DNA of 64,000 bases. It comes from an uncultured Olleya sp. Its GTDB lineage: Bacteria; Bacteroidota; Bacteroidia; Flavobacteriales; Flavobacteriaceae. A model generated the notes under the pieces. That model searched no databases. It was not told where the DNA came from and saw nothing but the letters and a program-made list of their open reading frames with translations. The DNA is taken from assembly GCA_947503885.1 (NCBI GenBank), contig CANNFD010000011.1, forward strand, positions 9,310-73,309. The letters are read 5' to 3'. Below are positions 4,425 to 53,085 of this stretch, piece by piece; positions within the stretch are counted from its first letter, which is position 1; each line of letters begins with the position of its first letter. A program made the translations under genes and the position numbers.

Positions 4425-4639
4425 TAGTTGTTTTCTATTAAGCTTTTAATTTTAACTGCTTTTTCAAAATGATCCAATTTATTAGTCTTAATCCACCATG
4501 TAGCAACTTCCATAAGTAATTCTGGACTATCATTTTTATTTTTGAAAAAAGCATAAAAAGAGACTCCAACCTGATCACCCTTTTGGGCAATTTTTTGATT
4601 GCAAGTCTCAATTATTTTATTTTTTAATGCAAGAGTCAT
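4424..4639 (-). CDS. small conserved hypothetical protein (DUF6500-like)
   Basis: 71 aa, KG..VG.SFYAFF.NKND.PELLME.ATWWI pattern; stop/start overlap with the downstream gene. Confidence 0.65.
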
Positions 4640-4647
4640 GTTAAAGA

Positions 4648-5955
4648 CTAACTGTTAGATCGTCTACTGTCGTTGTTTCTGCTTTTAGACTTGCTTCTAT
4701 TACGACCACCTGAGTTTGAAGACGAATTACCTCTAGATTTACCTTTTTCGCCTTTAGGCTTATTGTTTCTAGGTTGTTGTCTTCTGTTTTGTCCTGGTTT
4801 AATTGGCACTGTTGAGGCGTTAGGGTCTGGCTCAAAACCTTCTAAAATATCAACTGGCAACTTCATACCAATTAATTTTTCGATATCTCTTAAAAAAGTA
4901 GTCTCGTCTGCACTTACCAAACTTATTGCTTCACCATTAGCTCCTGCACGACCTGTACGACCAATTCTGTGTACATAATCTTCAGAGATATTTGGGATTT
5001 CAAAGTTAATAACGTGAGGTAATAAAGGGATATCTAAACCACGAGCAGCAATATCTGTTGCTACTAAAACACTTACACTTCCGTTTTTAAATCCAGCCAA
5101 TGCTTTTGTACGTGCACCCTGACTTTTATTTCCATGGATTGCAGCTGCTTTAATACCAGCTTTAATCATTTTTTCTACTAACTTGTTGGCACCATGCTTA
5201 GTACGTGTAAAAACAAGTACTTGTTTCCAATTACCATCATTAATTAACTTAATAATTAAATCCGTTTTCTTTGCTTTAGCAACTCTATATATTTTTTGTG
5301 CAATAGCATCAACCGTTGTGTTTTCTGGAGTCGCTTCTACTTGTACAGGACGATTTAAAATTCCGTTTGCTAGTTTTCTAATATCTTTAGAGAACGTAGC
5401 AGAGAACATTAAGTTTTGACGTTTGTCTGGCATAAGTTTCATTACGCGCTCAATATCGCGTAAAAACCCCATGTCTAGCATACGGTCTGCTTCATCTAAA
5501 ACAAAAATTTCTACACGTTTTAAAGACAGTAAGCCTTGGCTTTCTAGATCTATTAAACGCCCAGGTGTCGCAACTAACACATCAATACCTTGACGTATTG
5601 TTGCAGCTTGAGGTTTTTGATTAACCCCTCCAAATATAACAGCACTTCTCAAGTTTAAAAACTCGCTATACTCTTTTACATTTGCATATACTTGTGCTGC
5701 TAACTCACGTGTTGGCGTTAAAATTAACGCACGGATAGGTCTATATTTTTCTTTCGGGTTTTCCGATAATATGTGTAATAATGGCAGTGTAAAACCTGCT
5801 GTTTTACCAGTTCCTGTTTGTGCAGAAGCTAAAACATCGCGACCTTCTAATACTGGTGGAATGGCTTTTGCTTGAATTGGACTTGGTGTAGTGTATCCTT
5901 TTTTACTAATTGCTTTTAGTAAGGCTTCGGATAAGCCTAAAGATTGAAATGACAT
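4648..5955 (-). CDS. rhlE: DEAD-box RNA helicase (RhlE-like)
   Basis: [31 protein letters not shown]; basic disordered C-tail. Confidence 0.9.
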
Positions 5956-6298: not shown

Positions 6299-7768
6299 AT
6301 GAAACTTCTTAAAAAAGCACTTTTACTATTATTATCACTGCTTGTGATTTTTATAATCTATTTAGGTTTTAACACCTTAAATTTTAATTCAACCCAAATA
6401 CAACACTCCCCTATAAATAACATTAACCTTGATAAGTCTTCAATAAGCAATTTTTCTAAGGCTATAAAAATTAAAACAATATCTCCTGAAAACTCAGTTG
6501 ATTTTGACTCTATTCAGTTTTATAAATTTAACGCGTTTTTAAAAAACACATACCCTTTAACAGACTCTTTATTAGTAAAAAAGAATTTTAATTCTTTTAG
6601 TTTTTTATATAAATGGGAAGGCATTAATCCTACTTTAAAGCCAATTGTATTAATGGCGCATATTGATATTGTACCTGTTATTAAAGAAAATATACCACAT
6701 TGGAAACATGATGCTTTTGGAGGAGAAATAATAAAAGACACTATTTGGGGACGAGGCACAATAGACAATAAAGTTGGAGTTATTGGTATAATGGAATCTT
6801 TGGAATCTTTATTAAAAGAGGGCTATGTACCACAACGTAGTGTTTATATCGCTTTTGGTCATGATGAAGAAATTGGTGGTTTAAATGGCGCTAAAGTAAT
6901 TGCAAATCATTTAAAAAAAGAAGGTATTGAAGCAGAATATGTATTAGATGAAGGCGGTTATATTGTACAACAACTAATCCCAAGTGTAGAAAAAGATGTT
7001 GCACTAATTGGTATTGCCGAAAAAGGGTTTCTCTCTTTAGAACTATCTGTAAAAATAGAAGGAGGACACTCGTCAATGCCAGAAAACGAAACTGCTATAG
7101 ATGTCATTTCCAATGCTATTTCCAAACTAAAACACAACCCTTTTCCTGCAAAAATCTCTCCTCCAATCGAGCATTTTATCAAACACCTAGGTCCAGAAAT
7201 GCCTTTTGTTAATAAAATGGTATTTGCTAATAAGACCATTTTTAAATCATTAATTACTAGTATCTACGAAAAATCAGCATCTGGTAATGCATTGGTTAGA
7301 ACTACAACTTCTCCAACTATTTTTAATAGTGGCGTAAAAGAAAATATAATTCCGCATTCTGCAAAAGCAACCATAAACTTCAGGATTATTCCAGGAGAAA
7401 CCATTGCTAGTGTTATTGATCGTGTAACTAAAGTTATAGATGATCAGCGCATCACTATTACTAAAGGCGAATTTATATCAGAACCATCTAAGGTTTCAAG
7501 CACTGAATCTTTTGGTTATAAGACGTTACATAAGACTATTTCAGAAATTTACCCAGAAGCACTTGTAGCACCTTACTTGGTTGTTGGTGGGACCGACTCT
7601 AAACATTTTAGCACAATTACAGATAATATTTATAGGTTTTCTGCAATCAAATTAAATAAAGGAAATATTAAATCTTTTCATGGTTTAAATGAAAGATTAG
7701 CAGTTAGTGATTTTGAAACCTCAATTAAATTTTATCATCAATTAATAAAAAGTAGTACTTCAAAATAA
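6299..7768 (+). CDS. M20 family metallopeptidase (carboxypeptidase S / PM20D1-like), N-terminal membrane anchor
   Basis: LMAHIDIVP, IWGRGTIDNK, GHDEEIGG, VLDEGG, GGHSSMP, FHGLNER. Confidence 0.88.
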   Translation: MKLLKKALLLLLSLLVIFIIYLGFNTLNFNSTQIQHSPINNINLDKSSISNFSKAIKIKTISPENSVDFDSIQFYKFNAFLKNTYPLTDSLLVKKNFNSFSFLYKWEGINPTLKPIVLMAHIDIVPVIKENIPHWKHDAFGGEIIKDTIWGRGTIDNKVGVIGIMESLESLLKEGYVPQRSVYIAFGHDEEIGGLNGAKVIANHLKKEGIEAEYVLDEGGYIVQQLIPSVEKDVALIGIAEKGFLSLELSVKIEGGHSSMPENETAIDVISNAISKLKHNPFPAKISPPIEHFIKHLGPEMPFVNKMVFANKTIFKSLITSIYEKSASGNALVRTTTSPTIFNSGVKENIIPHSAKATINFRIIPGETIASVIDRVTKVIDDQRITITKGEFISEPSKVSSTESFGYKTLHKTISEIYPEALVAPYLVVGGTDSKHFSTITDNIYRFSAIKLNKGNIKSFHGLNERLAVSDFETSIKFYHQLIKSSTSK

Positions 7769-43012: not shown

Positions 43013-43041
43013 TAAGACAACTAATGTTTAATTTACCCTAC
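43013..43041 (-). promoter_or_regulatory. putative ECF-sigma promoter copy 1 (GTAGGGTAA-N11-GTTGTCTTA)
   Basis: Exact match to the copies at 43182-43210 and 43784-43812. Confidence 0.75.
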
Positions 43042-43181: not shown

Positions 43182-43210
43182 TAAGACAACACAAAATAAT
43201 TTTACCCTAC
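43182..43210 (-). promoter_or_regulatory. putative ECF-sigma promoter copy 2
   Basis: Plus strand TAAGACAAC-N11-TTACCCTAC. Confidence 0.7.
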
Positions 43211-43263: not shown

Positions 43264-43779
43264 ATGAACAACAGTAAAAACAACCTTTGCGAAGAAAATA
43301 GTTTTAGTAATTTTTATTTAGAACATTTACAGTCTGCTAGTAACTTTGCGTATTATAAATGCGGAGATGGCGCTAAATCTTTAGATTTGGTTCAGGATGC
43401 TTTTTCAAAAATTTGGGAAAACTGTTCTAAAATAGAGTTTGCAAAAGCTAAGACTTATCTATTCACCTCTATTAATAATATGTTTTTAAATACCATAAAA
43501 CATAAAAAGGTGGTTATGGAGTATGCAAAAGCTGCTCCTTATATAGATAAAGATAACCAAAGCCCTGAATATTTATTAGAAGAAGAAGAATTTAAAACAA
43601 AGCTACAAAACGCGATCGCTTTATTAACTGATGGGCAACGTGAAGTTTTTTTATTAAATAGAATTGAAGGAAAAAAATATAGAGAAATTGCCGAAATGCT
43701 TGATATATCTCAAAAAGCAGTAGAAAAAAGAATGTCTGGTGCATTAAAAACACTAAAGCAACATATTGAAAACATTTAA
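43264..43779 (+). CDS. ECF RNA polymerase sigma-70 factor
   Basis: DLVQDAF..IW (region 2), L...QREVFLLNRIEGKKYREIAEML.IS.KAVEKRM (region 4). Confidence 0.93.
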   Translation: MNNSKNNLCEENSFSNFYLEHLQSASNFAYYKCGDGAKSLDLVQDAFSKIWENCSKIEFAKAKTYLFTSINNMFLNTIKHKKVVMEYAKAAPYIDKDNQSPEYLLEEEEFKTKLQNAIALLTDGQREVFLLNRIEGKKYREIAEMLDISQKAVEKRMSGALKTLKQHIENI

Positions 43780-43783
43780 CTAA

Positions 43784-43812
43784 GTAGGGTAAGTTTGTAT
43801 TTAGTTGTCTTA
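43784..43812 (+). promoter_or_regulatory. putative ECF-sigma promoter copy 3, upstream of fecR
   Basis: GTAGGGTAA-GTTTGTATTTA-GTTGTCTTA. Confidence 0.75.
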
Positions 43813-43831
43813 AGAATGAAGGACTTATAAA

Positions 43832-44746
43832 ATGAAAAAAGAAAACAACATATTAAAATGGTTTAATAACGAATTATCTAATCAAGAGTTAGAGGATTTA
43901 AAACAAACCGAAAACCTAGATGTTTTAGAAAAAATAAAACATTATAGTGCCCAAATGGAAGCGCCTAAAGTTGATGCCCAAAAAGCTTTAGCTGCCTTTA
44001 AACAAAAACAACATACCAAATCAACCCCTAAAGTAATTAGCCTAAACTTTAAAACCTTTTTTAAAGTTGCAGCAATGTTGGTTGTTATGCTTGGCGCATC
44101 TTACTTTGCGTTTTTTAATGACACCAAAACATTTACAACACAAATCGCAGAAACTGAAACTTTAATTTTACCTGATAATTCTGAAGTTATTTTAAATGCT
44201 AAATCTAAATTAACCTACAATAAAAAAACATGGGACGATAAGCGTGATTTAGAATTAGAAGGAGAAGCCTTTTTTAAAGTTAGTAAAGGACAAAAGTTTA
44301 CTGTTACTACAGACGCTGGTGTAGTACAAGTGTTAGGAACCCAATTTAACGTTAAAGAACGTGACAATTACTTTGAAGTAAATTGCTTTGAAGGCTTAGT
44401 AAGTGTAACCTACAACAATCAAACCGTGAAGCTAAAAAAAGGCAAAGGGTATAAAGTTGTTGATGGTATTATTGAACTTACAGAAAGCAATACTATTAAG
44501 GCGCCATCTTGGTTACAAGATGAAAGCAGCTTTACTAAAATAGCTCTAAAACAAGTGATTGCAGAACTAGAACTCCAATATAAAGTCAAAATTAATTTTG
44601 AAAATATTGATGATTCTCAATTATTTACCGGTACTTTTACACATAGTAACTTAAATACTGCATTACAGTCTGTTACTATACCTTTAAAAATTAGTTATAA
44701 AATTGAGAAGAATATAGTTACATTTTATAAATATGAAGAGAACTAG
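43832..44746 (+). CDS. fecR: FecR family anti-sigma factor
   Basis: One TM helix, LPDNSEVILNA.S.L, LEGEAFFKV.KG, VQVLGTQFNV. Confidence 0.92.
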   Translation: MKKENNILKWFNNELSNQELEDLKQTENLDVLEKIKHYSAQMEAPKVDAQKALAAFKQKQHTKSTPKVISLNFKTFFKVAAMLVVMLGASYFAFFNDTKTFTTQIAETETLILPDNSEVILNAKSKLTYNKKTWDDKRDLELEGEAFFKVSKGQKFTVTTDAGVVQVLGTQFNVKERDNYFEVNCFEGLVSVTYNNQTVKLKKGKGYKVVDGIIELTESNTIKAPSWLQDESSFTKIALKQVIAELELQYKVKINFENIDDSQLFTGTFTHSNLNTALQSVTIPLKISYKIEKNIVTFYKYEEN

Positions 44747-47270
44747 ATGGATCGTTTGTTTATTGTTTTTTATAACCAACATTTGCATTAGTCAAACTAC
44801 TACCGATAAAATACCACTAACAGATTATATTAAAACTATTGAAGCAGAATTTGATGTGAAATTCTCCTATGCTGTAGATGATGTTGCTAATATTTTAATT
44901 GATAAACCCACTACTTCATTAAACTTAAAAGAGACCCTTAACTACCTAAACTCTAAAACGTTTTTAAACTTTAAAACTATCGACAACCGTTATATAACGG
45001 TTTCGGTGTTAGAAAAAACAATATCTATTTGTGGTATTGTGCTTTCAGAACACGAACCCCTTTTAGGTGCTTCTGTAATAATATCTGGGACAACAAAAGG
45101 CACAAGTACTAATTACGATGGACAGTTTCAACTAAATAATATTCCGTTAAACACAACCCTTTCAATTTCTTATTTAGGATTTGAAACCCAAACGATTAGC
45201 GCCAAGTATTTTTTTAAGGACGATCAAACTTGCAAACCCTTAACCTTAACAGAAAATAGCGAACAACTTAACGAGGTATTAATCACTAAGTTTCTTACTA
45301 CAGGTTTACAAAAACTAGCTGATGGTAGCATCGTTTTAAACACAGAGCAGTTTGGTATTTTACCGGGACTGATCGAGCCTGACATCCTATTATCTATCCA
45401 AGCACTACCAGGTGTAGAAAGTGTTAATGAAAGTGTTGCAAATATTAATGTTAGAGGTGGTACTAACGACCAAAACCTAATGTTATGGGATGACATAAAA
45501 ATGTACCATTCCGGACACTTTTTTGGACTAATATCGGCTTACAATCCTAATTTAACTAATAAGGTTATTGTTACCAAAAACGGGACCAGCAGCCAATATA
45601 GCGATGGGGTTTCTAGCACCATTAACATGTACACCAAAGACAAAATATCTAATACATTTGCGGGCGGAGTTGGTGTTAATTTAATAAGCGCAGATGCCTT
45701 TTTAGAAGTACCGATTTCTAAAAAATTAGAATTACATATCTCCGGAAGACGCTCTATCACAGATGGGATTTCCACACCTACTTACGAGAATTATTTTGAA
45801 AGAAGTTTTCAGGATAGTGATATCAATACTAATGCTTCAGGCAATAATACAAACACCACATCAGACTTTGTGTTTTATGATTATACTGCAAAGCTACTTT
45901 TTGACTTAAATAAAAATCATAAGTTTAGAGCTAATGTGATTGGTATAAATAACAATTTAGATTATACCGAAAGTGTTTTAAATAACAACAATACAACCAC
46001 CTCAAAAGCAAGTAATTTATCACAAACCAATTTGGGTTATGGTGCTAATTGGAACGCACAATGGACCGACAAGTTTAGCACTACTTTATCCGGAAGCTAC
46101 TCGCAATACAATGTGGATGCTACAGATTTAAAAGTAGAAACCAACCAAGGATTAACACAAGCAAACGAGGTTTTAGAAACAGGCGCACAATTTAAAACTA
46201 AATATAACGTCAATAATAACATGTCCGTTTTAACGGGTTATCAATTTGAAGAAATCGGTATATTAAACCAAACCACTGTTACTGCACCTGCATACGAGCG
46301 TACTAAAAAAGACGTCTTGCTTAATCACGCTGCATTTACAGAAGTAGAATATAATAATAAAAGCACCTATTTTAGACTTGGGGTTAGAGCTAATTATTTT
46401 CAAAAATTTAATCAGCTAATTATTGAGCCTAGAGTAAATATTAGACAAAAGCTATCCCGACAATTGGCTTTAAAACTAGAAGGCGAATTTAAAAATCAGT
46501 CTGTAACACAAATTGTAGATTTTCAGGATGATTTTTTAGGTGTCGAAAACAGACGTTGGATTTTAGCCAATAATACCACAATACCAATATCAACTAGTAA
46601 GCAAGCCTCTTTTGGTGTCGATTTTAAACAAAGCAATTTTAATCTTGACGTTACTGGTTTTTACAAAGTTGTCGATGGGATTACTGCCAGAAACCAAGGG
46701 TTTTATAACAATTTTCAATACCTTAATGCTACAGGAAATTATACCGCAAAAGGCGTCGAGTTTTTAGCCAAAAACACCTCAGAAAAATTAAGTACCTGGT
46801 TAAGTTATGCATATAGTATAAACGAGTACAAATTTGAAACTTTTAACCCTTCTGTTTTTCCTAATAATGTAGATATTAGACACTCTGTCTCCCTAGCATT
46901 TAACTATGCGTTATTTAAAAATTTCCAACTGTCTGTAGGCGGAGTTTGGCATTCTGGACAACCCTATACTAGACCTTTAGAAGGTAACGAAACAGTAGAA
47001 ATTGACGACAACTACTTTGTTAATTATGACCAACCAAACAGTCAAAATGTAGATCCTTTTTTAAGAGTTGACACCTCTATTAGCTACGATATTAACCTGT
47101 CTAACAATTCAAAATTAACTTTTAGAGCTGGTGTTAGAAACCTAACTAACGAAGACAATATCATTAACAAGTATTTTAAAGTTGACCCAGAAGACACCAA
47201 CAAGACCGTTGAGATTAACAATAAGTCTTTAGGATTTACACCAAATGCTAGTTTGCGTGTTAGTTTTTAA
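44733..47270 (+). CDS. TonB-dependent receptor with N-terminal signalling and CarboxypepD_reg-like domains
   Basis: GTSTNYDGQF.L, LPGV...NVRGGTNDQNL plug, terminal LRVSF. Confidence 0.9.
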   Translation: MKRTRWIVCLLFFITNICISQTTTDKIPLTDYIKTIEAEFDVKFSYAVDDVANILIDKPTTSLNLKETLNYLNSKTFLNFKTIDNRYITVSVLEKTISICGIVLSEHEPLLGASVIISGTTKGTSTNYDGQFQLNNIPLNTTLSISYLGFETQTISAKYFFKDDQTCKPLTLTENSEQLNEVLITKFLTTGLQKLADGSIVLNTEQFGILPGLIEPDILLSIQALPGVESVNESVANINVRGGTNDQNLMLWDDIKMYHSGHFFGLISAYNPNLTNKVIVTKNGTSSQYSDGVSSTINMYTKDKISNTFAGGVGVNLISADAFLEVPISKKLELHISGRRSITDGISTPTYENYFERSFQDSDINTNASGNNTNTTSDFVFYDYTAKLLFDLNKNHKFRANVIGINNNLDYTESVLNNNNTTTSKASNLSQTNLGYGANWNAQWTDKFSTTLSGSYSQYNVDATDLKVETNQGLTQANEVLETGAQFKTKYNVNNNMSVLTGYQFEEIGILNQTTVTAPAYERTKKDVLLNHAAFTEVEYNNKSTYFRLGVRANYFQKFNQLIIEPRVNIRQKLSRQLALKLEGEFKNQSVTQIVDFQDDFLGVENRRWILANNTTIPISTSKQASFGVDFKQSNFNLDVTGFYKVVDGITARNQGFYNNFQYLNATGNYTAKGVEFLAKNTSEKLSTWLSYAYSINEYKFETFNPSVFPNNVDIRHSVSLAFNYALFKNFQLSVGGVWHSGQPYTRPLEGNETVEIDDNYFVNYDQPNSQNVDPFLRVDTSISYDINLSNNSKLTFRAGVRNLTNEDNIINKYFKVDPEDTNKTVEINNKSLGFTPNASLRVSF

Positions 47271-47290
47271 TGGACTTCTCTAATTAAAGT

Positions 47291-47380
47291 TACGTCGTTG
47301 TACAAATCTATATTTTTACAAAAACCGACTAACAGAATTGGACAATTGACAAATAAATCAAACGTTTTTTATCAGTGACA
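47291..47380 (+). repeat. degenerate copy R0 of the ~100-bp promoter-like repeat
   Basis: TACGTCGTTGTAC...ACAAAAACCGACTAAC...TTGGACAATTGAC...TTTTTTATCA aligns with 50245-50332. Confidence 0.55.
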
Positions 47381-47534
47381 CAATTAACAAACTAGCCAAT
47401 TACTATTCAATACAAACCATAACTTACACACCTTCAAACACTAAAAGTCATTTTTTTTGTGTCGCAGAGCCCAAAACCTACATACGTGCTAAACAACTAC
47501 TCCTTTTAGGAAGATTATTTAACATAAAGCTAAT

Positions 47535-47600
47535 TTATAGATAGTCTAACAAAAACAAATTAGATTTGTTGAACGATTTGCAAAAAACATGAAACAATTT
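47535..47600 (+). repeat. degenerate copy R1 of the ~100-bp repeat, with a perfect TAGATTTG -7 element at 47561-47568
   Basis: TATAGATAGTCTAACAAAAAC...TTTGTTGAACGATTTGCAAAAAACATGAAAC. Confidence 0.6.
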
Positions 47601-47671
47601 TATATTTTTTAATACATTTGATGCAAATTTTTAAAAAAGAACACAAACAATAATCTATATATTTAATTTTA

Positions 47672-48415
47672 ATGAAAACTTACATTTCCCTTTTTATTTT
47701 TAGCATTTTTACCAATATGATGATAGCCCAAGTAGGAATTGGTACTACAGAGCCAAAAGCCGCATTGGACATTACTTCAGAAGATTCAGGTTTATTAATT
47801 CCTCGTGTTGCACTTAGCGATATAACGGATAGCACCACGGTTAGGACACCATCGGATTCCGATCCTGACGTAGAGGTTAGCACATTGGTTTATAATGATG
47901 GGACCGGAGGCTTACAACCTGCTGGTTTTTATTATTGGGAAGGTAGCAAGTGGATTCAATTTGCATCAACCGAGAAGCAAGTACATGTAGGTAAATTCAA
48001 GATAACAGCTTCTGGGATCACTACTATTGCTGGATTACCATTTAAACCAAAAAGTATCGAGTTTAAAGCATATGCTAATATTGAAGATTACAATTTAAAT
48101 AGCGATAATGGTGTAAATAACAATAACTCAGGATTACAAAACTACTTTGGATACATGCAAGGTTATGCTCAAAACACTTCTGGTACTATTGAGCAGCAAG
48201 TAATAGCAGGTGGTGCAAGTGCCAATTCTGTAAATGACCATTCACGTTACGCTTCGGACACTAATTGTATCGGAGTACGTTATGCAAACCAAAACGGAGA
48301 TTCGTTAGGATTAACAAATGCTTCACTTACCTCTTTTAACGCAGATGGTTTTACATTAAATGTAAGCAATTTTACTGATGGCTTAGTTGTAATTTATACC
48401 GCTTATAAGTATTAA
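47672..48415 (+). CDS. secreted hypothetical protein (Flavobacteriaceae QVGIGT family)
   Basis: Signal peptide, then QVGIGTTEPKAALDITS..SGLLIPRVAL and GFYYWEGSKW. Confidence 0.8.
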   Translation: MKTYISLFIFSIFTNMMIAQVGIGTTEPKAALDITSEDSGLLIPRVALSDITDSTTVRTPSDSDPDVEVSTLVYNDGTGGLQPAGFYYWEGSKWIQFASTEKQVHVGKFKITASGITTIAGLPFKPKSIEFKAYANIEDYNLNSDNGVNNNNSGLQNYFGYMQGYAQNTSGTIEQQVIAGGASANSVNDHSRYASDTNCIGVRYANQNGDSLGLTNASLTSFNADGFTLNVSNFTDGLVVIYTAYKY

Positions 48416-48532
48416 TAATATAAGTAAGCCTAAATTAAAATGTTTTTTTAATAAGCACATCTTAAAATGTAAAACAAAAGCATTATATAATAGTTAGCAT
48501 TATGCTTAAAAATTAATGTTATATAACATAAA

Positions 48533-48592
48533 AACACAAACAAAAAACGCTTTCAAATATCTGAAGGCGTTTTTTAGTATAATAAAGTTTAA
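48533..48592. terminator. copy A of the argS terminator/3' region
   Basis: AACACAAACAAAAAACGCTTTCAAATATCTGAAGGCGTTTTTTAGTATAATAAAGTTTAA, near-identical to 51241-51298. Confidence 0.8.
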
Positions 48593-48895
48593 AACTGAAA
48601 AACGTTTTGTCCAACCACAACTTTTAAAGAATTATCATCTCCGGAAAAAACACCTGCACCTTTCCGGTTAGACAAACTCGTGTAAGAGGGATAGTTTTAC
48701 ACTGTACTTTATCAATTTAGTCATTTAAAAACTAATTGTAATAAGGTAAAAAAGAACCCCTCCCAACCAACTTATGATTAATTCCTAGAGTTAAAATCAA
48801 AAAAAATCAGAAAATATGTATACATTTGATAGAGCTATAATCGATTGAATATCAACAACTAACACTAGCATTAATTGAGATTAAAATAAAATATT

Positions 48896-49261
48896 ATGAA
48901 ACATTTAAAATCCAATTTAATACTGACTTTATTTATTTTTAGCTTTTTGGTTTGTCAATCCTGTAAAAGTGATGATGATTCTCAAGCTCTGGTTGAAATT
49001 TGTAATGACGGAATAGACAATGATGGTGATGGGTTTACAGATTGTGAGGATGCTGACTGTGTTTCAGCCTCAAATTGTGTAATAGAAATTTGTAACGACG
49101 GTATTGACAATGACGGTGATGGGTTTACAGATTGTGATGATGATGATTGTGATTCAGACTCCAACTGTGGTGTTGAAATTTGTAACGACGGTATTGACAA
49201 TGATGGGGATGGATTTACAGATTGTGATGATGATGACTGTACTGCTGATCCAAGTTGTTAA
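48896..49261 (+). CDS. small lipoprotein made of three Cys/Asp-rich putative metal-binding repeats (MopE-like)
   Basis: Lipobox CQSC-KSDDD; 3 x EICNDGIDNDGDGFTDC(E/D)D(A/D)DC. Confidence 0.85.
   Translation: MKHLKSNLILTLFIFSFLVCQSCKSDDDSQALVEICNDGIDNDGDGFTDCEDADCVSASNCVIEICNDGIDNDGDGFTDCDDDDCDSDSNCGVEICNDGIDNDGDGFTDCDDDDCTADPSC
48995..49258 (+). repeat. three tandem 90-nt coding repeats
   Basis: GAAATTTGTAA starts at 48995, 49085 and 49175. Confidence 0.9.
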
Positions 49262-49426
49262 CATAGCCAATACAAAGTTTAAAAACAATTGCTGTTTTTT
49301 ACATATATAATGGCGTATCAAGTTTGCTACGTCTAAATTTTATATATAAAACCCTAGCACACAAACCTACAACGTCACTTTGACTAAAGCTTGTTTTACT
49401 AATAGCCCTTTTTAATATAATATAAT

Positions 49427-49473
49427 AACGCTTTCAAATACTTGAAGGCGTTTTTAGTATAGTAACGTTTTAA
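49427..49473. terminator. copy B of the argS terminator/3' region
   Basis: AACGCTTTCAAATACTTGAAGGCGTTTTTAGTATAGTAACGTTTTAA. Confidence 0.78.
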
Positions 49474-49519
49474 TCTTAAAATGTTTTATTCTGCTACAAC
49501 TATCTACTAGGTTGTGTAA

Positions 49520-49620
49520 AAAAATTTACGTAGTTCTACGTATAGTTTATCTAACATTAAACAACTAATTTCGTTGACCGATTGATAAAAACATTGAAAC
49601 GATTTTTTATCATCGAAATA
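49520..49620 (+). repeat. copy R2 of the ~100-bp promoter-like repeat
   Basis: TACGTAGTTCTAC...TAATTTCGTTGACCGATTGATAAAAACATTGAA...TTTTTTATCATCGAAATA. Confidence 0.85.
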
Positions 49621-49659
49621 ATTACTCGGTAAATTATAAATTGAAATAAAATATAAAAT

Positions 49660-49869
49660 ATGACATTGTTAATAGTAGTAATAGTAGTTGGATTGATTTG
49701 GTATGGAATAAAAATTGGATTTAATATTGGTTGTATAATCGGAGGAATCATTGGAGTATTTATTGGAGGGAGTTTGGGTGTAGCTGGTGGAGGCGGAGCA
49801 TCAAACGGGTGGATTATTTTCGGCGCTATCGGATTTGTTGTTGGGGGATTAATTGCAAATAAAAATTAA
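49660..49869 (+). CDS. small glycine-rich membrane protein
   Basis: 69 aa, hydrophobic GxxxG-rich helices, ATG after an A/T-rich leader. Confidence 0.65.
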   Translation: MTLLIVVIVVGLIWYGIKIGFNIGCIIGGIIGVFIGGSLGVAGGGGASNGWIIFGAIGFVVGGLIANKN

Positions 49870-50044
49870 TATAAAAAATATTATAGGAATAGTAATTCAA
49901 TTTGGATTAGCGAATTATAAAAGAAGTTCAGAGGAATTATTTGAAAATGGCTCAGAATTTATGACAAATCCTACTGTTATAGGAGTTTTGACTCTTTTGA
50001 GTTGGGTTATAATGGTAATCGGAATCGTAAGTTTTTTCTATTAA
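49853..50044 (+). pseudogene. probable fragment of a membrane-protein gene
   Basis: 63 aa, overlaps the upstream gene by 17 nt with a poor N-terminus; hydrophobic C-terminal helix; followed by stop-riddled sequence. Confidence 0.4.
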
Positions 50045-50124
50045 TAAATATTTATGAGTTAACTCGGAATTGAACAATTAAAGCGGAAGAATTAAAACTT
50101 GTTCATTCAGATGTCTCGTAACAG

Positions 50125-50196
50125 TTTGTAACAAAATTTATATAATTTATTGCTAGTTCTATCCTATTTACAAAAGTCCTCGCAGATTTACTATTT
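50125..50196 (+). mobile_element. decayed left half of an attC-like Flavobacteriaceae cassette repeat
   Basis: TTTGTAACAAAATTTATATAATTTATTGCTAGTTCTATCCTATTTACAAAAGTCCTCGCAGATTT; resembles a repeat family I recall from Flavobacteriaceae; right arm absent. Confidence 0.45.
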
Positions 50197-50239
50197 AACC
50201 ACTTTACATATTTACATCTTTAAAAAGGGTATTTATAAC

Positions 50240-50340
50240 AAATCTACGTAGTTGTACTTATAGATTTCTTAACAAAAATCTACTAACTTCGTTGAACGAT
50301 TGATAAAAAACATTGAAGCTTTTTTTTTATCATCGAAATA
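50240..50340 (+). repeat. copy R3 of the ~100-bp promoter-like repeat
   Basis: TACGTAGTTGTAC...TAACTTCGTTGAACGATTGATAAAAAACATTGAA...TTTTTTATCATCGAAATA. Confidence 0.85.
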
Positions 50341-50381
50341 TTGGCAATAATTAAAAAACAAAATAAAACTGCACATTAAAA

Positions 50382-50735
50382 ATGACAAATGACTATCAAG
50401 ATTACAAAATACTTTTAAACAACTACACTTCTTCTTACATTAGTGAATATGGAACAAAAAGTGCTAAAAAGACCATAGAAACAATTCAAAAATCAAAACA
50501 CTCGATTAACTTATTGCATCAAAGCGCAACAAAAGGTTTTGTGCCAACTGTCGGTGATTTTAATTCTTTTGTCCTTAGTAATTTATCGTTGAGCTTTGCA
50601 AAAAAAGCAAAAATTAGATTTGCTTCAATAATCTTATTTAATCATTGGCATAATGATGTTAATGTTGAATTACAACTTTTATCAGAATATGAAGTTATTT
50701 CTTTGTTTAACAAAATCCTTGAAAAAACAATATAA
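50382..50735 (+). CDS. hypothetical protein (cassette ORF 1)
   Basis: 117 aa, ATG after an A-rich leader, no recognisable motif. Confidence 0.7.
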   Translation: MTNDYQDYKILLNNYTSSYISEYGTKSAKKTIETIQKSKHSINLLHQSATKGFVPTVGDFNSFVLSNLSLSFAKKAKIRFASIILFNHWHNDVNVELQLLSEYEVISLFNKILEKTI

Positions 50736-50799
50736 AATTATTTAAAAATAGCCTACTATTTAAAATCAGTAGATTAACTCAAATACTTAGAAAATAATT

Positions 50800-51051
50800 A
50801 TGGATATAAATGAATTGAAAACAGGAATTATCGATGGAATGTCAAAAATTGTAGTTGATGATTTCAGTAAAAGTGAATATAAAGGAACACCTCTTGAAAG
50901 TATGGCTATCATTGAATCATTAAATTACTCATCAAAATGGTACACAAATTGGCTATTGGAAAATAAAATTGATTTTAAGATTTCTGAGGAACAAATTGAT
51001 GATATAATAAAAGATTGTTATACAAAGACGTATGATAAATTTTTAGAATAA
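50800..51051 (+). CDS. hypothetical acidic protein (cassette ORF 2)
   Basis: 83 aa, no recognisable motif. Confidence 0.7.
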   Translation: MDINELKTGIIDGMSKIVVDDFSKSEYKGTPLESMAIIESLNYSSKWYTNWLLENKIDFKISEEQIDDIIKDCYTKTYDKFLE

Positions 51052-51087
51052 TTATATAGTTCTACAGTAATGGTAACCGTATAAAAC

Positions 51088-51216
51088 TATTGCCAACAAC
51101 GTATATAAAAAATAGCGATTTTAGTGCTTAAACGAAAGATAAATAATAAAATAAAGGTCTGTAATAAACCGAAAAGTTAGTGTTTAAAATCCGCTACTTT
51201 TCATATACCAGACCTT
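51088..51216 (+). mobile_element. attC-like imperfect inverted repeat
   Basis: Arms 51101-51123 and 51185-51208: two A/C mismatches (G:T on the bottom strand) and one extrahelical base; GCCAAC at the left end. Confidence 0.65.
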
Positions 51217-51240
51217 TCAACGAAAAGTCAAAATCTATCT

Positions 51241-51298
51241 AACACAAAAAAAAACGCTTTCAATAACTTGAAAGCGTTTTTAGTATAATAAAGTTTAA
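51241..51298. terminator. argS terminator (copy C, native position)
   Basis: AAAACGCTTTCAA-TAAC-TTGAAAGCGTTTT, 2 nt from the argS stop codon. Confidence 0.85.
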
Positions 51299-51300
51299 GC

Positions 51301-53085
51301 TTACATACGTTCTGGCACTGCCACACCTAATAAGCTAAAGGCATTTTTTATTGTTGTTGCTACTGCTTTAGACAGTTGTACCCTAAACACAATTTCGTTT
51401 TGCGTGTCTGCGCCAAGTATAGATACGTTTTGGTAAAAACTATTAAAGGCTTTTACTAGGTCGTAGGTATAATTAGCAATTAACGCTGGACTGTGGTTAT
51501 TGGCTGCTTGTTGTATTACTTCTGGAAACAGTTGTAATTGTTTTATTAGCTCGCGCTCCTTATCATCCAAAGCCACTTGATCTGCGCTTAAAGTTATTGC
51601 AGGGTCTATATTAGCTTTGCGTAATATGGATTGGATTCTGGCATAGGTATACTGTATAAAAGGTCCTGTATTACCCTGAAAATCGATAGAGTCTTTTGGA
51701 TCAAATAAGATTCGTTTTTTAGGGTCTACTTTTAAAATATAATATTTTAAAGCGCCTAAACCTATGGTTTGATATAAGTCTTGCTTTTCTTGGTCTGTGT
51801 AACCGTCCAGTTTACCAAGCTCTTCAGATATGGTTTGTGCTGTGTCTGCCATTTCTACAATTAAATCGTCAGCATCTACAACAGTCCCTTCTCTACTTTT
51901 CATTTTTCCGGAAGGTAAATCTACCATCCCATAACTTAAATGAAACAGGTTTTTTGCCCAATCAAAGCCTAGTTTTTTAATAATTAAAAACAAGACCTGA
52001 AAATGGTATTCTTGCTCGTTACCAACCGTATAAACCATACCACCAACATCTGGATAATCTTTTACACGTTGGATTGCTGTACCAATATCTTGGGTCATGT
52101 ACACTGCTGTACCGTCAGATCGTAGGACAATTTTCTCGTCCAAACCATCTTCGGTCAAATCGCACCATACCGAGCCATCTTCTTTTTTAAAGAACACGCC
52201 AGATTTTAAACCTTCGGCAACAAACTCTTTACCTAAAAGGTAAGTTTGACTTTCATAATATAAATTATCAAAATCTACACCTAGGCTTTTATAGGTTTGG
52301 TCAAACCCTTTATACACCCAACCGTTCATGGTTTGCCAAAGTGCAACAACGTCCTTATCTCCTGCTTCCCATTGTTGTAACATTTGTTGTGCTGCAACCA
52401 AAATTGGTGCTTCTTTTTTAGCGTCGTCTTCGGTTTTACCCTCAGCCATTAAAGCTGCTATTTCCTTTTTGTATTCTTGGTCAAATTTAACGTAGTAATT
52501 ACCTACTAATTTATCTCCTTTTAATCCTGTAGATTCCGGAGTTTCGTTATTGCCAAAACGTTGCCAAGCTAACATACTTTTACAAATATGAATCCCTCGG
52601 TCGTTAATAATCTGTGTTTTATATACTTTTTTACCTGACGCCTTTAATATTTCGGCAACGCTATACCCTAATAAATTATTACGGATATGCCCAAGGTGTA
52701 ATGGTTTGTTGGTGTTAGGCGAAGAATACTCCACCATAATGGCTTTATTTTCCGCTTTAGCGTCCACAAAACCAAATTTTTCTTCGGCTTTAATACTATT
52801 AAAATAGTTTACAAAATAAGAGGCTTCAATCTCAAGATTTAAAAACCCTTTAACCACGTTAAACGCTTTTACCTCTGTAACATTGGCTACTAAATAATCC
52901 CCAATAGCTTCACCAATTTGCATTGGATTACCTTTAACAACCCGTAACATTGGAAAAACTACTACAGTAATATCTCCAGCAAATTCTTTACGAGTAGCTT
53001 GGAATTCTACAGTTTCTAAATCTGCACTGTAAATTGAATTTACAGCTTGTTTCACGAATTTTTCTAAGGTGTTTTGAAGACTCAT
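51301..53085 (-). CDS. argS: arginine--tRNA ligase
   Basis: EYSSPNTNKPLHLGHIRN (HIGH), GKMKSREG, YIQYTYARI; TATATTTG promoter at 53107-53114. Confidence 0.97.
   Translation of the reverse strand: MSLQNTLEKFVKQAVNSIYSADLETVEFQATRKEFAGDITVVVFPMLRVVKGNPMQIGEAIGDYLVANVTEVKAFNVVKGFLNLEIEASYFVNYFNSIKAEEKFGFVDAKAENKAIMVEYSSPNTNKPLHLGHIRNNLLGYSVAEILKASGKKVYKTQIINDRGIHICKSMLAWQRFGNNETPESTGLKGDKLVGNYYVKFDQEYKKEIAALMAEGKTEDDAKKEAPILVAAQQMLQQWEAGDKDVVALWQTMNGWVYKGFDQTYKSLGVDFDNLYYESQTYLLGKEFVAEGLKSGVFFKKEDGSVWCDLTEDGLDEKIVLRSDGTAVYMTQDIGTAIQRVKDYPDVGGMVYTVGNEQEYHFQVLFLIIKKLGFDWAKNLFHLSYGMVDLPSGKMKSREGTVVDADDLIVEMADTAQTISEELGKLDGYTDQEKQDLYQTIGLGALKYYILKVDPKKRILFDPKDSIDFQGNTGPFIQYTYARIQSILRKANIDPAITLSADQVALDDKERELIKQLQLFPEVIQQAANNHSPALIANYTYDLVKAFNSFYQNVSILGADTQNEIVFRVQLSKAVATTIKNAFSLLGVAVPERM

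Follow-up and report, generated by a model that had tools for sequence, protein, structure and literature searches.

What is the function of a promoter-like element of about 100 bp that occurs four times in one intergenic gap, and why do two of the copies end exactly where unrelated DNA begins? The question is raised by a stretch of 64,000 nucleotides (nt) from an uncultured Olleya sp. of the family Flavobacteriaceae (contig CANNFD010000011.1, positions 9,310 to 73,309; G000:C11:9310-73309). This stretch is referred to as the window, and its source genome, G000, amounts to 3.04 Mb. The copies, R0 to R3, lie in a 4-kb gap between an operon encoding an extracytoplasmic function (ECF) sigma factor, FecR and a TonB-dependent receptor (43264-47270) and the convergent argS gene (51301-53085). 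An original prediction, made from the letters of the window, held that the element is a regulated promoter that doubles as an insertion point, analogous to the cassette promoter (Pc) and attI site of integrons. Comparison with related genomes leads to a revised answer. The element is probably the left part of a folded docking site that resembles the attC sites of integron cassettes, carries promoter-like sequence and takes in integron-type cassettes. In what follows, G001-G010 are other Olleya genomes, L-numbers are extracted loci or contigs, and a slash within a sequence marks a crossover point.

The proposed arrangement would work as follows. R2 and R3 would each be the left ~80-100 bp of a structured attachment site fused to promoter-like sequence. 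When unoccupied, such a site of ~95 bp would consist of a TTG box, 20 nt, the box TAACTTCG, an overlapping outer box TTCGTTTAA(C), an imperfect hairpin with a CATTRAAACG loop, a spacer and finally N/TTAAACGAA, a layout that would correspond to the R''-L''-loop-L'-R' order of an integron attC. A tyrosine recombinase would insert circular cassettes, each with its own attC-like site of 120-140 nt, at the N/TT of the right box. The candidate enzyme is an Xer/IntI-like protein of 396 amino acids (aa) encoded at G000:C6:246641-247831. Insertion would split the site, leaving the promoter, R'' box and hairpin upstream and displacing TTAAACGAA to the far end of the cassette. Transcription is predicted to start ~5 nt after TAACTTCG, within the site, and would cross the crossover into a promoterless cassette whose ATG would typically lie 7-60 nt past the junction. 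In the window, R3 would hold a cassette of 875 nt (cassette B, 50341-51215), R2 would hold an older, degenerate one (cassette A), and R0 and R1 would be decayed sites. Promoter activity, an acting recombinase and a system that is still at work today are what we infer; a family of elements with a common geometry, empty and occupied states, defined cassette ends, rules of complementarity and the independent mobility of cassette B emerge from the comparison of sequences.

The argument begins with the junction behind R3. It had been claimed that R2 and R3 are closely similar, share one end and then diverge at once. The two are indeed 82% identical over 102-104 nt (BLAST of R3 against the genome) and both terminate in TTTTTTATCATCGAAATA, after which R2 continues as A/TTACTCGG (49621/49622) and R3 as /TTGGCAATA (50340/50341). 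The abrupt divergence after CATCGAAATA is real for R3, as position 50341 is base 1 of a recurring 875-nt unit. The interval 50341-51217 recurs with 97.6% identity and the same ends (BLAST) between GFO_IDH_MocA and DoxX genes in L235, L236, and L238. L233 carries two tandem copies with a period of 875, and on L234 the unit has a different 3' site. Exact look-up of its 117-aa protein returned 17 public contigs. The left junctions elsewhere read ...CATATACAAGACCG/TTGGCAAT, ...ATAATCAAG/TTGGCAAT, and ...CAAAAACG/TTGGCAAT, including ...ACCG/TTGGCAAT, and the unit is then followed by G/TT and the next gene. None of the contigs bearing cassette B elsewhere has the promoter element. Since the cassette recurs without the element, it moves independently of R3, and 50340/50341 is a recombination junction. 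Furthermore, the start of the unit, TTGGCAATA, is complementary to TATTGCCAAC, the start of its own 3' inverted repeat. Cassette B therefore obeys integron cassette logic: the crossover is at G/TT, and the first bases of the cassette complement the R'' box of the attC that it carries.

Where is the other half of the docking site? It is found beyond the cassette. At occupied copies, the cassette starts with N/TT directly after the element, and its opening 8-10 nt match, in reverse complement, the 5' box of the downstream attC-like site (17 of 17 loci by eye, 26 by script). In the same number of loci (17/17) the attC-like site of the docked cassette ends with ...ACG/, and next comes TTAAACGAA, which is reverse-complementary to the invariant TTCGTTTAA of the element. 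A script with strict criteria, which saw 1.5 kb downstream of each copy, returned 34 candidate occupied sites and located the displaced box in 26 of them at 0-1 mismatch. Six sites are empty, the element being directly followed by TTAAACGAA, and one of these is in the source genome (G000:C1:434886). The outer boxes covary across the insert. TTCGTTGAAC occurs with TTCAACGAA in R3, where they are 875 nt apart, in L032 and in the empty site L179, all three sharing the same compensated T-to-G / A-to-C pair, while in L145 the box TTCGATTAAC pairs with TTAATCG. The element's R'' box has its partner in this downstream flank and not in the first bases of a cassette upstream. Many copies stand immediately behind core genes; examples are the receptor genes of four genomes and, at G000:C1, a gene for an outer-membrane protein.

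These observations divide the original prediction. The idea of an insertion point is strongly supported by the cassette that begins at 50341 and by the complement TTCAACGAA that follows it, whereas the idea of a promoter is argued from geometry, as discussed below. The analogy with attI does not hold, because the site is folded, attC-like and dispersed in many copies and is not a single attI beside an integrase. A separate observation concerns the surroundings of empty sites in other genera. There, the Rfam family Flavo-1 (RF01705) lies 47-60 nt downstream, after a conserved flank TTAAACGAACCTCTCCAAAAA (L230:461-617, L206:454-575, L195:478-570). Flavo-1 may be a part of the platform, such as a terminator or insulator, rather than a small-RNA gene.

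The fold itself is also that of a recombination site. Empty sites and the rejoined R3 form a 9-bp outer stem (TTCGTTTAA with TTAAACGAA), an asymmetric internal loop, an inner stem of 10-13 bp and a loop of 9-12 nt, with folding energies of -12 to -18.8 kcal/mol (z = -4.1 to -6.5). R3 rejoined across its cassette (50286-50340 plus 51216-51230) gives a two-stem hairpin of -14.5 kcal/mol (z = -4.1). Both R''/R' and L''/L' pairing are present, the inner stem covaries, and the site measures ~60 nt from box to box. In Olleya, 94.6% of the cells in the hairpin alignment are paired; sliding the partners lowers this to 45-57%. Double changes are seen in 6 of the 11 pairs. Across genera the values are 87.2% and 26-52%, with 79 cells changed on both sides, in an alignment fitted to the model structure. 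Across genera, the loop CATTRAAACG is retained together with one A.C mismatch and a bulged A. As the architecture is that of attC, a recombination structure formed by DNA accounts for the covariation of the hairpin. A further role as RNA, alongside that of the DNA, is possible. Rfam, which does not contain the attC model of IntegronFinder, gave no match at the element, either in the window (E<=10) or in ten related loci (E<=5). In L047, L056, and L212 the hairpin loop contains an insertion of 25-30 nt (...TGTGCTGAACTTGT...) that is reminiscent of the variable terminal structure of attC.

How far does the family extend? A covariance model was built from 17 copies after an initial BLAST and applied to 11 Olleya genomes and, with stricter filters, to 140 other Flavobacteriaceae genera. 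All 11 Olleya genomes contain the element (1-28 copies per genome), as do 26 of the 140 other sampled genera (up to 28 copies per genome). Within the genus there are more than 120 family matches at E<=0.01, a repeat far beyond chance. The source genome has a fifth and better copy (G000:C1:434886-434966, 96.8 bits) in addition to weak matches on contigs C4 and C9. The original prediction would have fallen if one and the same gene always came after the element, and this is not so. At the argS locus, different genes stand behind an element of the TACGTA class (described below) in G000, G002, G005, G006, and G010. The cargo behind the element elsewhere includes genes for PIN_8, HNH_5, an 1106-aa reverse transcriptase, Crp-like, TerB, CIA30 and 2OG-oxygenase proteins, as well as proteins with C-termini that resemble, by eye, type IX secretion sorting domains.

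The next issue is the promoter-like part. Flavobacterial promoters have -33 and -7 elements, the latter being TAnnTTTG at -12 to -5, with AT-rich spacers and a transcription start 4-5 nt later (PMC6847099; PMC9723704). In the element, information content jumps at the TTG box, 23 nt before CTAAC. Nothing is conserved upstream of TTG, and conservation wanes a few bases past the hairpin. In 81 of 86 copies, TTG and TAACTTCG are separated by a spacer of 20 nt, whose sequence alternates between A-tracts and T-tracts. An invariant TTCGTTTAAC lies downstream of TAACTTCG, followed by the covarying hairpin, and 40 nt outside the palindrome are conserved across genera. Compared with the housekeeping promoter of Bacteroidetes (-33 TTTG / -7 TAnnTTTG, with the TTG box 19-21 nt before the -7 box), the element has the 20-nt spacing and retains the TA, TT, and G positions, but it has C at -6 in almost all copies and TAG in place of TTG in R2 and R3. 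The position of the -7 box, the start distance of 4-5 nt and an initiation region rich in A are in line with flavobacterial signals in the literature (PMC6847099; PMC9723704). In 42 of 50 Olleya copies, and in 37 of 45 from other genera, the end of the element is followed within ~250 nt by the ATG of a co-oriented open reading frame (ORF), usually within 60 nt. This geometry and orientation, and the absence of space for a promoter within docked cassettes, suggest that the element may act as a promoter. Counts of TTG-N19-21-TAnnTTTG and of its TTCG version in the genome were uninformative. One detail has to be withdrawn. TAGATTTG in R1 had been put forward as a perfect -7 element, but under the refined consensus TAHHTTTG a G at -10 hardly ever occurs (PMC6847099).

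In a subclass of sites, R2 and R3 among them, TACGTA-N4-TACGTA with a 10-bp period lies directly against the -33 position, and this subclass is also present in another genus (G166, loci L220-L224). The TACGTA box may be an activator site (compare the position of the Pho box) or the end of a neighboring recombination site (...CTACG/T). Several other ideas about this region were discarded. Phase variation via the A/T tract of the spacer conflicts with a spacer length fixed at 20 nt. TAACTTCGT (50284-50292) equals 9 nt of a loxP arm, but the arm stands alone, lacking an inverted counterpart at the lox distance, and the identity was taken as chance. The element is not the target promoter of the neighboring ECF sigma factor either, as the sigma factor's own repeated motif GGGTAA...GTCTTA differs. 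That motif, as AGGGTAA-N11-TTGTCTTA, occurs three times around the sigma gene (43013-43041, 43182-43210, 43784-43812) and is a plausible ECF promoter unrelated to the element. An ECF-style reading of the element as TGTAAA-N16-CGTT is possible.

Which enzyme might act on these sites? There is no tyrosine recombinase gene on the window's contig, C11. The 396-aa recombinase on C6 has two attC-like sites 0.5-1.4 kb downstream on the same strand. The first cassette beside it starts G/TTATATGC and has the attC box GCATATAAC. In total, BLAST against G000 gives more than 40 matches to two attC-like families. They are spread over about ten contigs and often lie at contig ends; the arrays are broken up over contigs C1, C8, C13, C19, C22, and C23. 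In G001, G002, G005, and G010 an orthologous recombinase lies just upstream of attC matches that span 10-80 kb (~80 kb in G001). The arrays with their recombinases are located at G000:C6:246641-249193, G001:C1:1488783-1576207, G002:C1:519436-557375, and G005:C1:1217961-1235284. These loci resemble sedentary chromosomal integrons, in a phylum where such integrons have been reported to be very rare. The Xer/IntI-like enzymes of these Olleya genomes are 380-418 aa long, with ~100 extra aa at the N-terminus. The 396-aa protein passes NF040815 (XerA / integron integrase) with a score of 221.4 against a cut-off of 220, a margin of 1.4 bits. Its alignment with TIGR02249 is in two pieces that skip model positions 179-237, and the alignment with VchIntIA is also in two pieces. 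The recombinase is widespread in the family, with matches in 79 of 140 genera at E<=1e-60. In many draft genomes of the family its homologs are very often no more than a few hundred bases from a contig end, which is expected if attC arrays break assemblies.

Several observations do not sit easily with a docking site of this kind. The pair counts across genera come from alignments fitted to the model's own structure. The -7-like box has C at -6, where T is nearly invariant in Flavobacterium johnsoniae promoters (PMC6847099), and the -33 box of both window copies is TAG rather than TTG. The recombinase fails TIGR02249 (203 bits, cut-off 265) and is without the IntI-specific insertion; none of the 11 Olleya genomes reaches that cut-off. 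It tracks the element only weakly, being present in ~18 of 26 genomes with the element and ~61 of 114 without, as the recombinase belongs to a broad family. Around half the copies could be assigned to neither the empty nor the occupied state, in part owing to the 1.5-kb span of the script, and the ends of cassette A have no independent support.

What if the element is a recombination site and nothing more? In this scenario the TTG-N20-TAACTTCG boxes would bind the recombinase, for example its N-terminal extension, and cassettes would be expressed from elsewhere or not at all. The overlap of the -7-like box with the R'' box would fit, as would the invariant C at -6, where the housekeeping sigma factor expects T, and the additional ~100 aa of the recombinase. 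The attI site of class 1 integrons likewise has accessory integrase-binding repeats upstream of the crossover. However, neither the attC sites (types 1 and 2) nor the junction beside the recombinase has the TTG and TAACTTCG boxes. These recombination partners do without the boxes, which are therefore apparently unneeded for recombination, and this favors a promoter role. The 20-nt spacing, the A/T-rich spacer and the orientation toward ORFs with an ATG 7-60 nt past the junction also suit a promoter, and docked cassettes have no room for one of their own. A purely recombinational site is unlikely on this evidence. It is distinctly improbable that the element is the ordinary attC of an upstream cassette, in which case the window would contain a plain CALIN (cluster of attC sites lacking an integrase) and the element would look like a promoter by coincidence. 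The fold is attC-like, and arrays of G001, G003, and G006 show elements and cassettes in alternation, but the R'' box is invariant and pairs with TTAAACGAA rather than with any upstream cassette start, many copies directly follow core genes, and the conserved 40 nt reach beyond the palindrome.

Two alternatives remain, the first of which does away with recombination. A leader-RNA hairpin was the initial working reading and was dropped after the cassette ends and the displaced complementary box emerged. It would make the element a regulon promoter with a hairpin in the 5' leader, as a regulator site or stabilizer, whose copies are kept by selection or spread as a 'mobile promoter'. The loop (CAUURAAACG as RNA), A.C mismatch and bulge conserved across genera would agree with this, one copy has G.U-compatible changes, and reuse of promoters is documented in prokaryotes (PMC3575422). 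Nevertheless, such a hairpin fails to explain the complementary box after the cassette, covariation over 450-875 nt, the empty and occupied states and the rule that links cassette start and attC, all of which makes it very improbable. The last alternative goes back to the original prediction, which had seen three heptamers (CGTTGAA, CATTGAA, CATCGAA) as direct repeats for a LytTR-type response regulator. The heptamers and their spacing are as described: they start at 50290, 50311, and 50331 in R3 (21/20 nt) and at 49572, 49592, and 49611 in R2 (20/19 nt). G000 encodes seven LytTR proteins. LytTR operators are conserved direct repeats about 21 nt apart that are bound as double-stranded DNA. However, within the folded site the three heptamers coincide with the R'' box, the hairpin loop and the 3' arm or spacer, respectively. 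The third is not conserved, with CAGAGAA, CCGCGAA or TCGCTAT in its place elsewhere in the family. Covarying stems separate the heptamers, and none of the seven LytTR genes is on contig C11. A LytTR site is scarcely credible. An element of the MITE (miniature inverted-repeat transposable element), REP (repetitive extragenic palindromic) or IS200 type was also rejected, as there are no terminal inverted repeats, the hairpin is single and orientation with genes is strict.

How does the proposed docking site compare with known systems? An integron is one platform with one integrase, one attI, one promoter and one array. The attI and Pc of class 1 and sedentary chromosomal integrons have in common with the element insertion at a fixed site (G/TT or N/TT), a resident promoter, here promoter-like, directed into a promoterless cassette, and cassettes that bear attC-type sites and whose first bases are complementary to their own R''. 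However, attI is single, next to intI, recognized as double-stranded DNA and non-palindromic, whereas the element is a folded palindrome with the promoter-like part inside, dispersed in up to ~28 copies far from recombinase genes and mostly holding one cassette. It shares with attC the R''-L''-loop-L'-R' order, asymmetric internal loop, mismatches, variable loop, an inner stem conserved in structure over sequence and the N/TT crossover. It differs in that its ~60 nt are at the lower limit of attC sizes, its outer boxes are invariant and mutually complementary, it is not the 3' end of a cassette, and conserved promoter-like sequence of 40 nt lies on its 5' side. Units bounded by G/TT whose palindrome has a 5' box complementary to the cassette start, as expected of integron cassettes, are found here, including cassette B in five contexts with a tandem pair. 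So is an attC-type array adjacent to a recombinase in the same orientation (G000:C6, G001, G002, G005, G010).

Cassettes can also insert outside of a platform. The term attG has been used for non-classical genomic insertion sites of integron cassettes (PMC12901181). As proposed for the element, insertion is outside the integron platform and expression is via a nearby host promoter. Sites of the attG kind are short and not known to be structured or conserved. The element, in contrast, belongs to a conserved and structured multi-genus family with a built-in promoter-like part. ORF-less promoter cassettes and cassette-borne promoters have also been described (cited in PMC8618304). They too provide a local promoter within arrays, and a ~300-nt unit in G001, G003, and G006 that begins with TTAAACGAAC is comparable. 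However, most copies of the element are solitary and chromosomal, with the promoter-like part fused to the recombination site and not itself cargo. Mobile or reused promoters similarly place a near-identical region upstream of unrelated genes (PMC3575422), but here the genes would reach the promoter by site-specific insertion instead of the promoter spreading. Surveys have found integrons to be nearly absent from Bacteroidetes. In IntegronFinder 2.0 the phylum had earlier only In0 and later one complete integron, in Salinibacter (PMC9024848). A search of the available literature on integron-like systems in Flavobacteriaceae or Bacteroidota found no description of a system such as this.

This is where the wider meaning lies. 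A common marine family has long attC-type arrays beside a recombinase that fails IntI criteria. It also has conserved, solitary, folded target sites in several genera, with promoter-like sequence and in many cases exactly one cassette. If the docking-site explanation is right, it would widen the taxonomic and mechanistic range of cassette capture and explain how promoterless cassettes are expressed outside of an array. It would also account for small hypervariable islands in flavobacterial genomes with their cargo of PIN, HNH, reverse-transcriptase, TerB, 2OG-oxygenase and secreted proteins. A compact natural landing pad plus promoter would be available for genetic tools in Bacteroidetes, and there would be a new test system for how target sites are defined and whether the IntI insertion is needed in folded-site recombination. 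An enticing extension, about which we have considerable doubt, is a 'distributed integron' in Flavobacteriaceae. A large and mostly silent array beside the Xer-like recombinase, which lacks the IntI insertion, would be the store, and the conserved promoter-bearing sites, up to a few dozen scattered over the chromosome, would be expression slots to which cassettes are relocated singly. A cassette would then be switched on by relocation and not by reshuffling of one array.

Table 1. Positions of the repeat copies, cassettes and neighboring features in the window.
Feature	Position	Strand	Details
TonB-dependent receptor gene	44733-47270		Stop directly precedes R0
R0, decayed copy	47283-47382	+	30.5 bits, E=0.011 (covariance model); directly 3' of receptor stop
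R1, decayed copy	47535-47606	+	23.9 bits, E=0.3; 66 nt upstream of 247-aa ORF (47672-48415)
D4a, copy of argS terminator and flank	48543-48589	+	
D4b, copy of argS terminator and flank	49424-49470		
R2, left part of second docking site	49519-49621	+	78.2 bits (covariance model); tail up to 49621
R2, TACGTA pair	49527-49532, 49537-49542		
R2, TAG	49543-49545		Followed by 20-nt spacer
R2, TAATTTCG	49566-49573		
R2, TTCGTTGACC	49570-49579		
R2, hairpin	49580-49615		
Cassette A, probable, degenerate	49622-50248	+	Starts TTACTCGG; ORFs of 69 aa (49660-49869) and 63 aa (49853-50044)
R3, left part of occupied docking site	50237-50340	+	84.0 bits (covariance model); crossover after 50340
R3, TACGTA	50245-50250		
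R3, degenerate TACTTA	50255-50260		
R3, -33-like TAG	50261-50263		Followed by 20-nt spacer
R3, -7-like TAACTTCG	50284-50291		
R3, R''-like box TTCGTTGAAC	50288-50297		
R3, inner hairpin	50298-50335		GATTGATAAAAAAC / loop / TTTTTTATCATCG; then tail GAAATA
Cassette B, 875 nt	50341-51215	+	Starts TTGGCAATAATTAAAA; ORFs of 117 aa (50382-50735) and 83 aa (50800-51051)
Cassette B, attC-like site	51088-51215		Starts TATTGCCAAC, the complement of the cassette start; ends ...CATATACCAGACCT
Displaced right half (R'-like box) of R3, TTCAACGAA	51216-51224	+	Exact reverse complement of TTCGTTGAA (50288-50296); argS terminator next
D4c, real argS terminator	51250-51296		

The remaining parts of the window are older and less regular (Table 1). 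R0 and R1 had been described as decayed copies, and with 60-72% identity in an ungapped comparison and low scores this is borne out. Partner boxes of R0, R1, and R2 were sought by eye and none was found, and for R1 no attC complement was recognized. A paralogous receptor gene in G002, G007, G008, and G009 has an intact copy of the element directly 3' of its stop. For cassette A, the left half of a site of the second attC-like family (TTTGTAAC...TATATAATTTATTGCTAG...) begins at ~50125. The right half is decayed and seems to end with CTACG at 50244-50248. Positions 50139-50192 match the type-2 attC sites of L234 (82-84%) and dozens of sites in every Olleya genome. No match to the coding part of cassette A was found elsewhere, so its ends are placed provisionally.

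The gap between the receptor operon and argS contains six small ORFs, none of the six with a Pfam match, and exact look-ups of the ArgS, 69-aa, and 247-aa proteins returned no matches. In O. aquimaris (G008, L173) the corresponding gap is 12 nt and has no terminator. In other species with the receptor gene beside argS it is 1.7-9.3 kb, with unrelated and differing contents. D4a and D4b are each followed by ~35 nt of decayed argS 3' end, and these copies precede parts of the window's array.

A related arrangement exists beside pepD in G001, G003, and G006, where the ~300-nt unit mentioned above alternates with ORF cassettes. It contains a terminator, the last ~85 nt of pepD and, at its end, the element. 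Cassette breakpoints from a comparison of the G003, G005, and G006 arrays were ambiguous because all of the elements are alike. The pattern suggests that such units are tandem duplications of an occupied site and its flank, followed by cassette exchange; equivalently, they are ORF-less 'promoter cassettes'. The pepD units at L171:3537-3850, 4521-4850, and 6550-6870 all share one break point. The argS copies in the window parallel these pepD 3' fragments, the terminator and 3' end of a flanking conserved gene being repeated inside an array in both cases.

Finally, positions 48896-49261 of the window encode a 121-aa secreted protein with no Pfam match. It has three Cys/Asp-rich repeats of 30 aa (C-N-D-G-I-D-N-D-G-D-G-F-T-D-C), the corresponding DNA repeats of 90 nt are 78-83% identical, and an attC-like end, ...CACACAAACCTACAACG, lies downstream.

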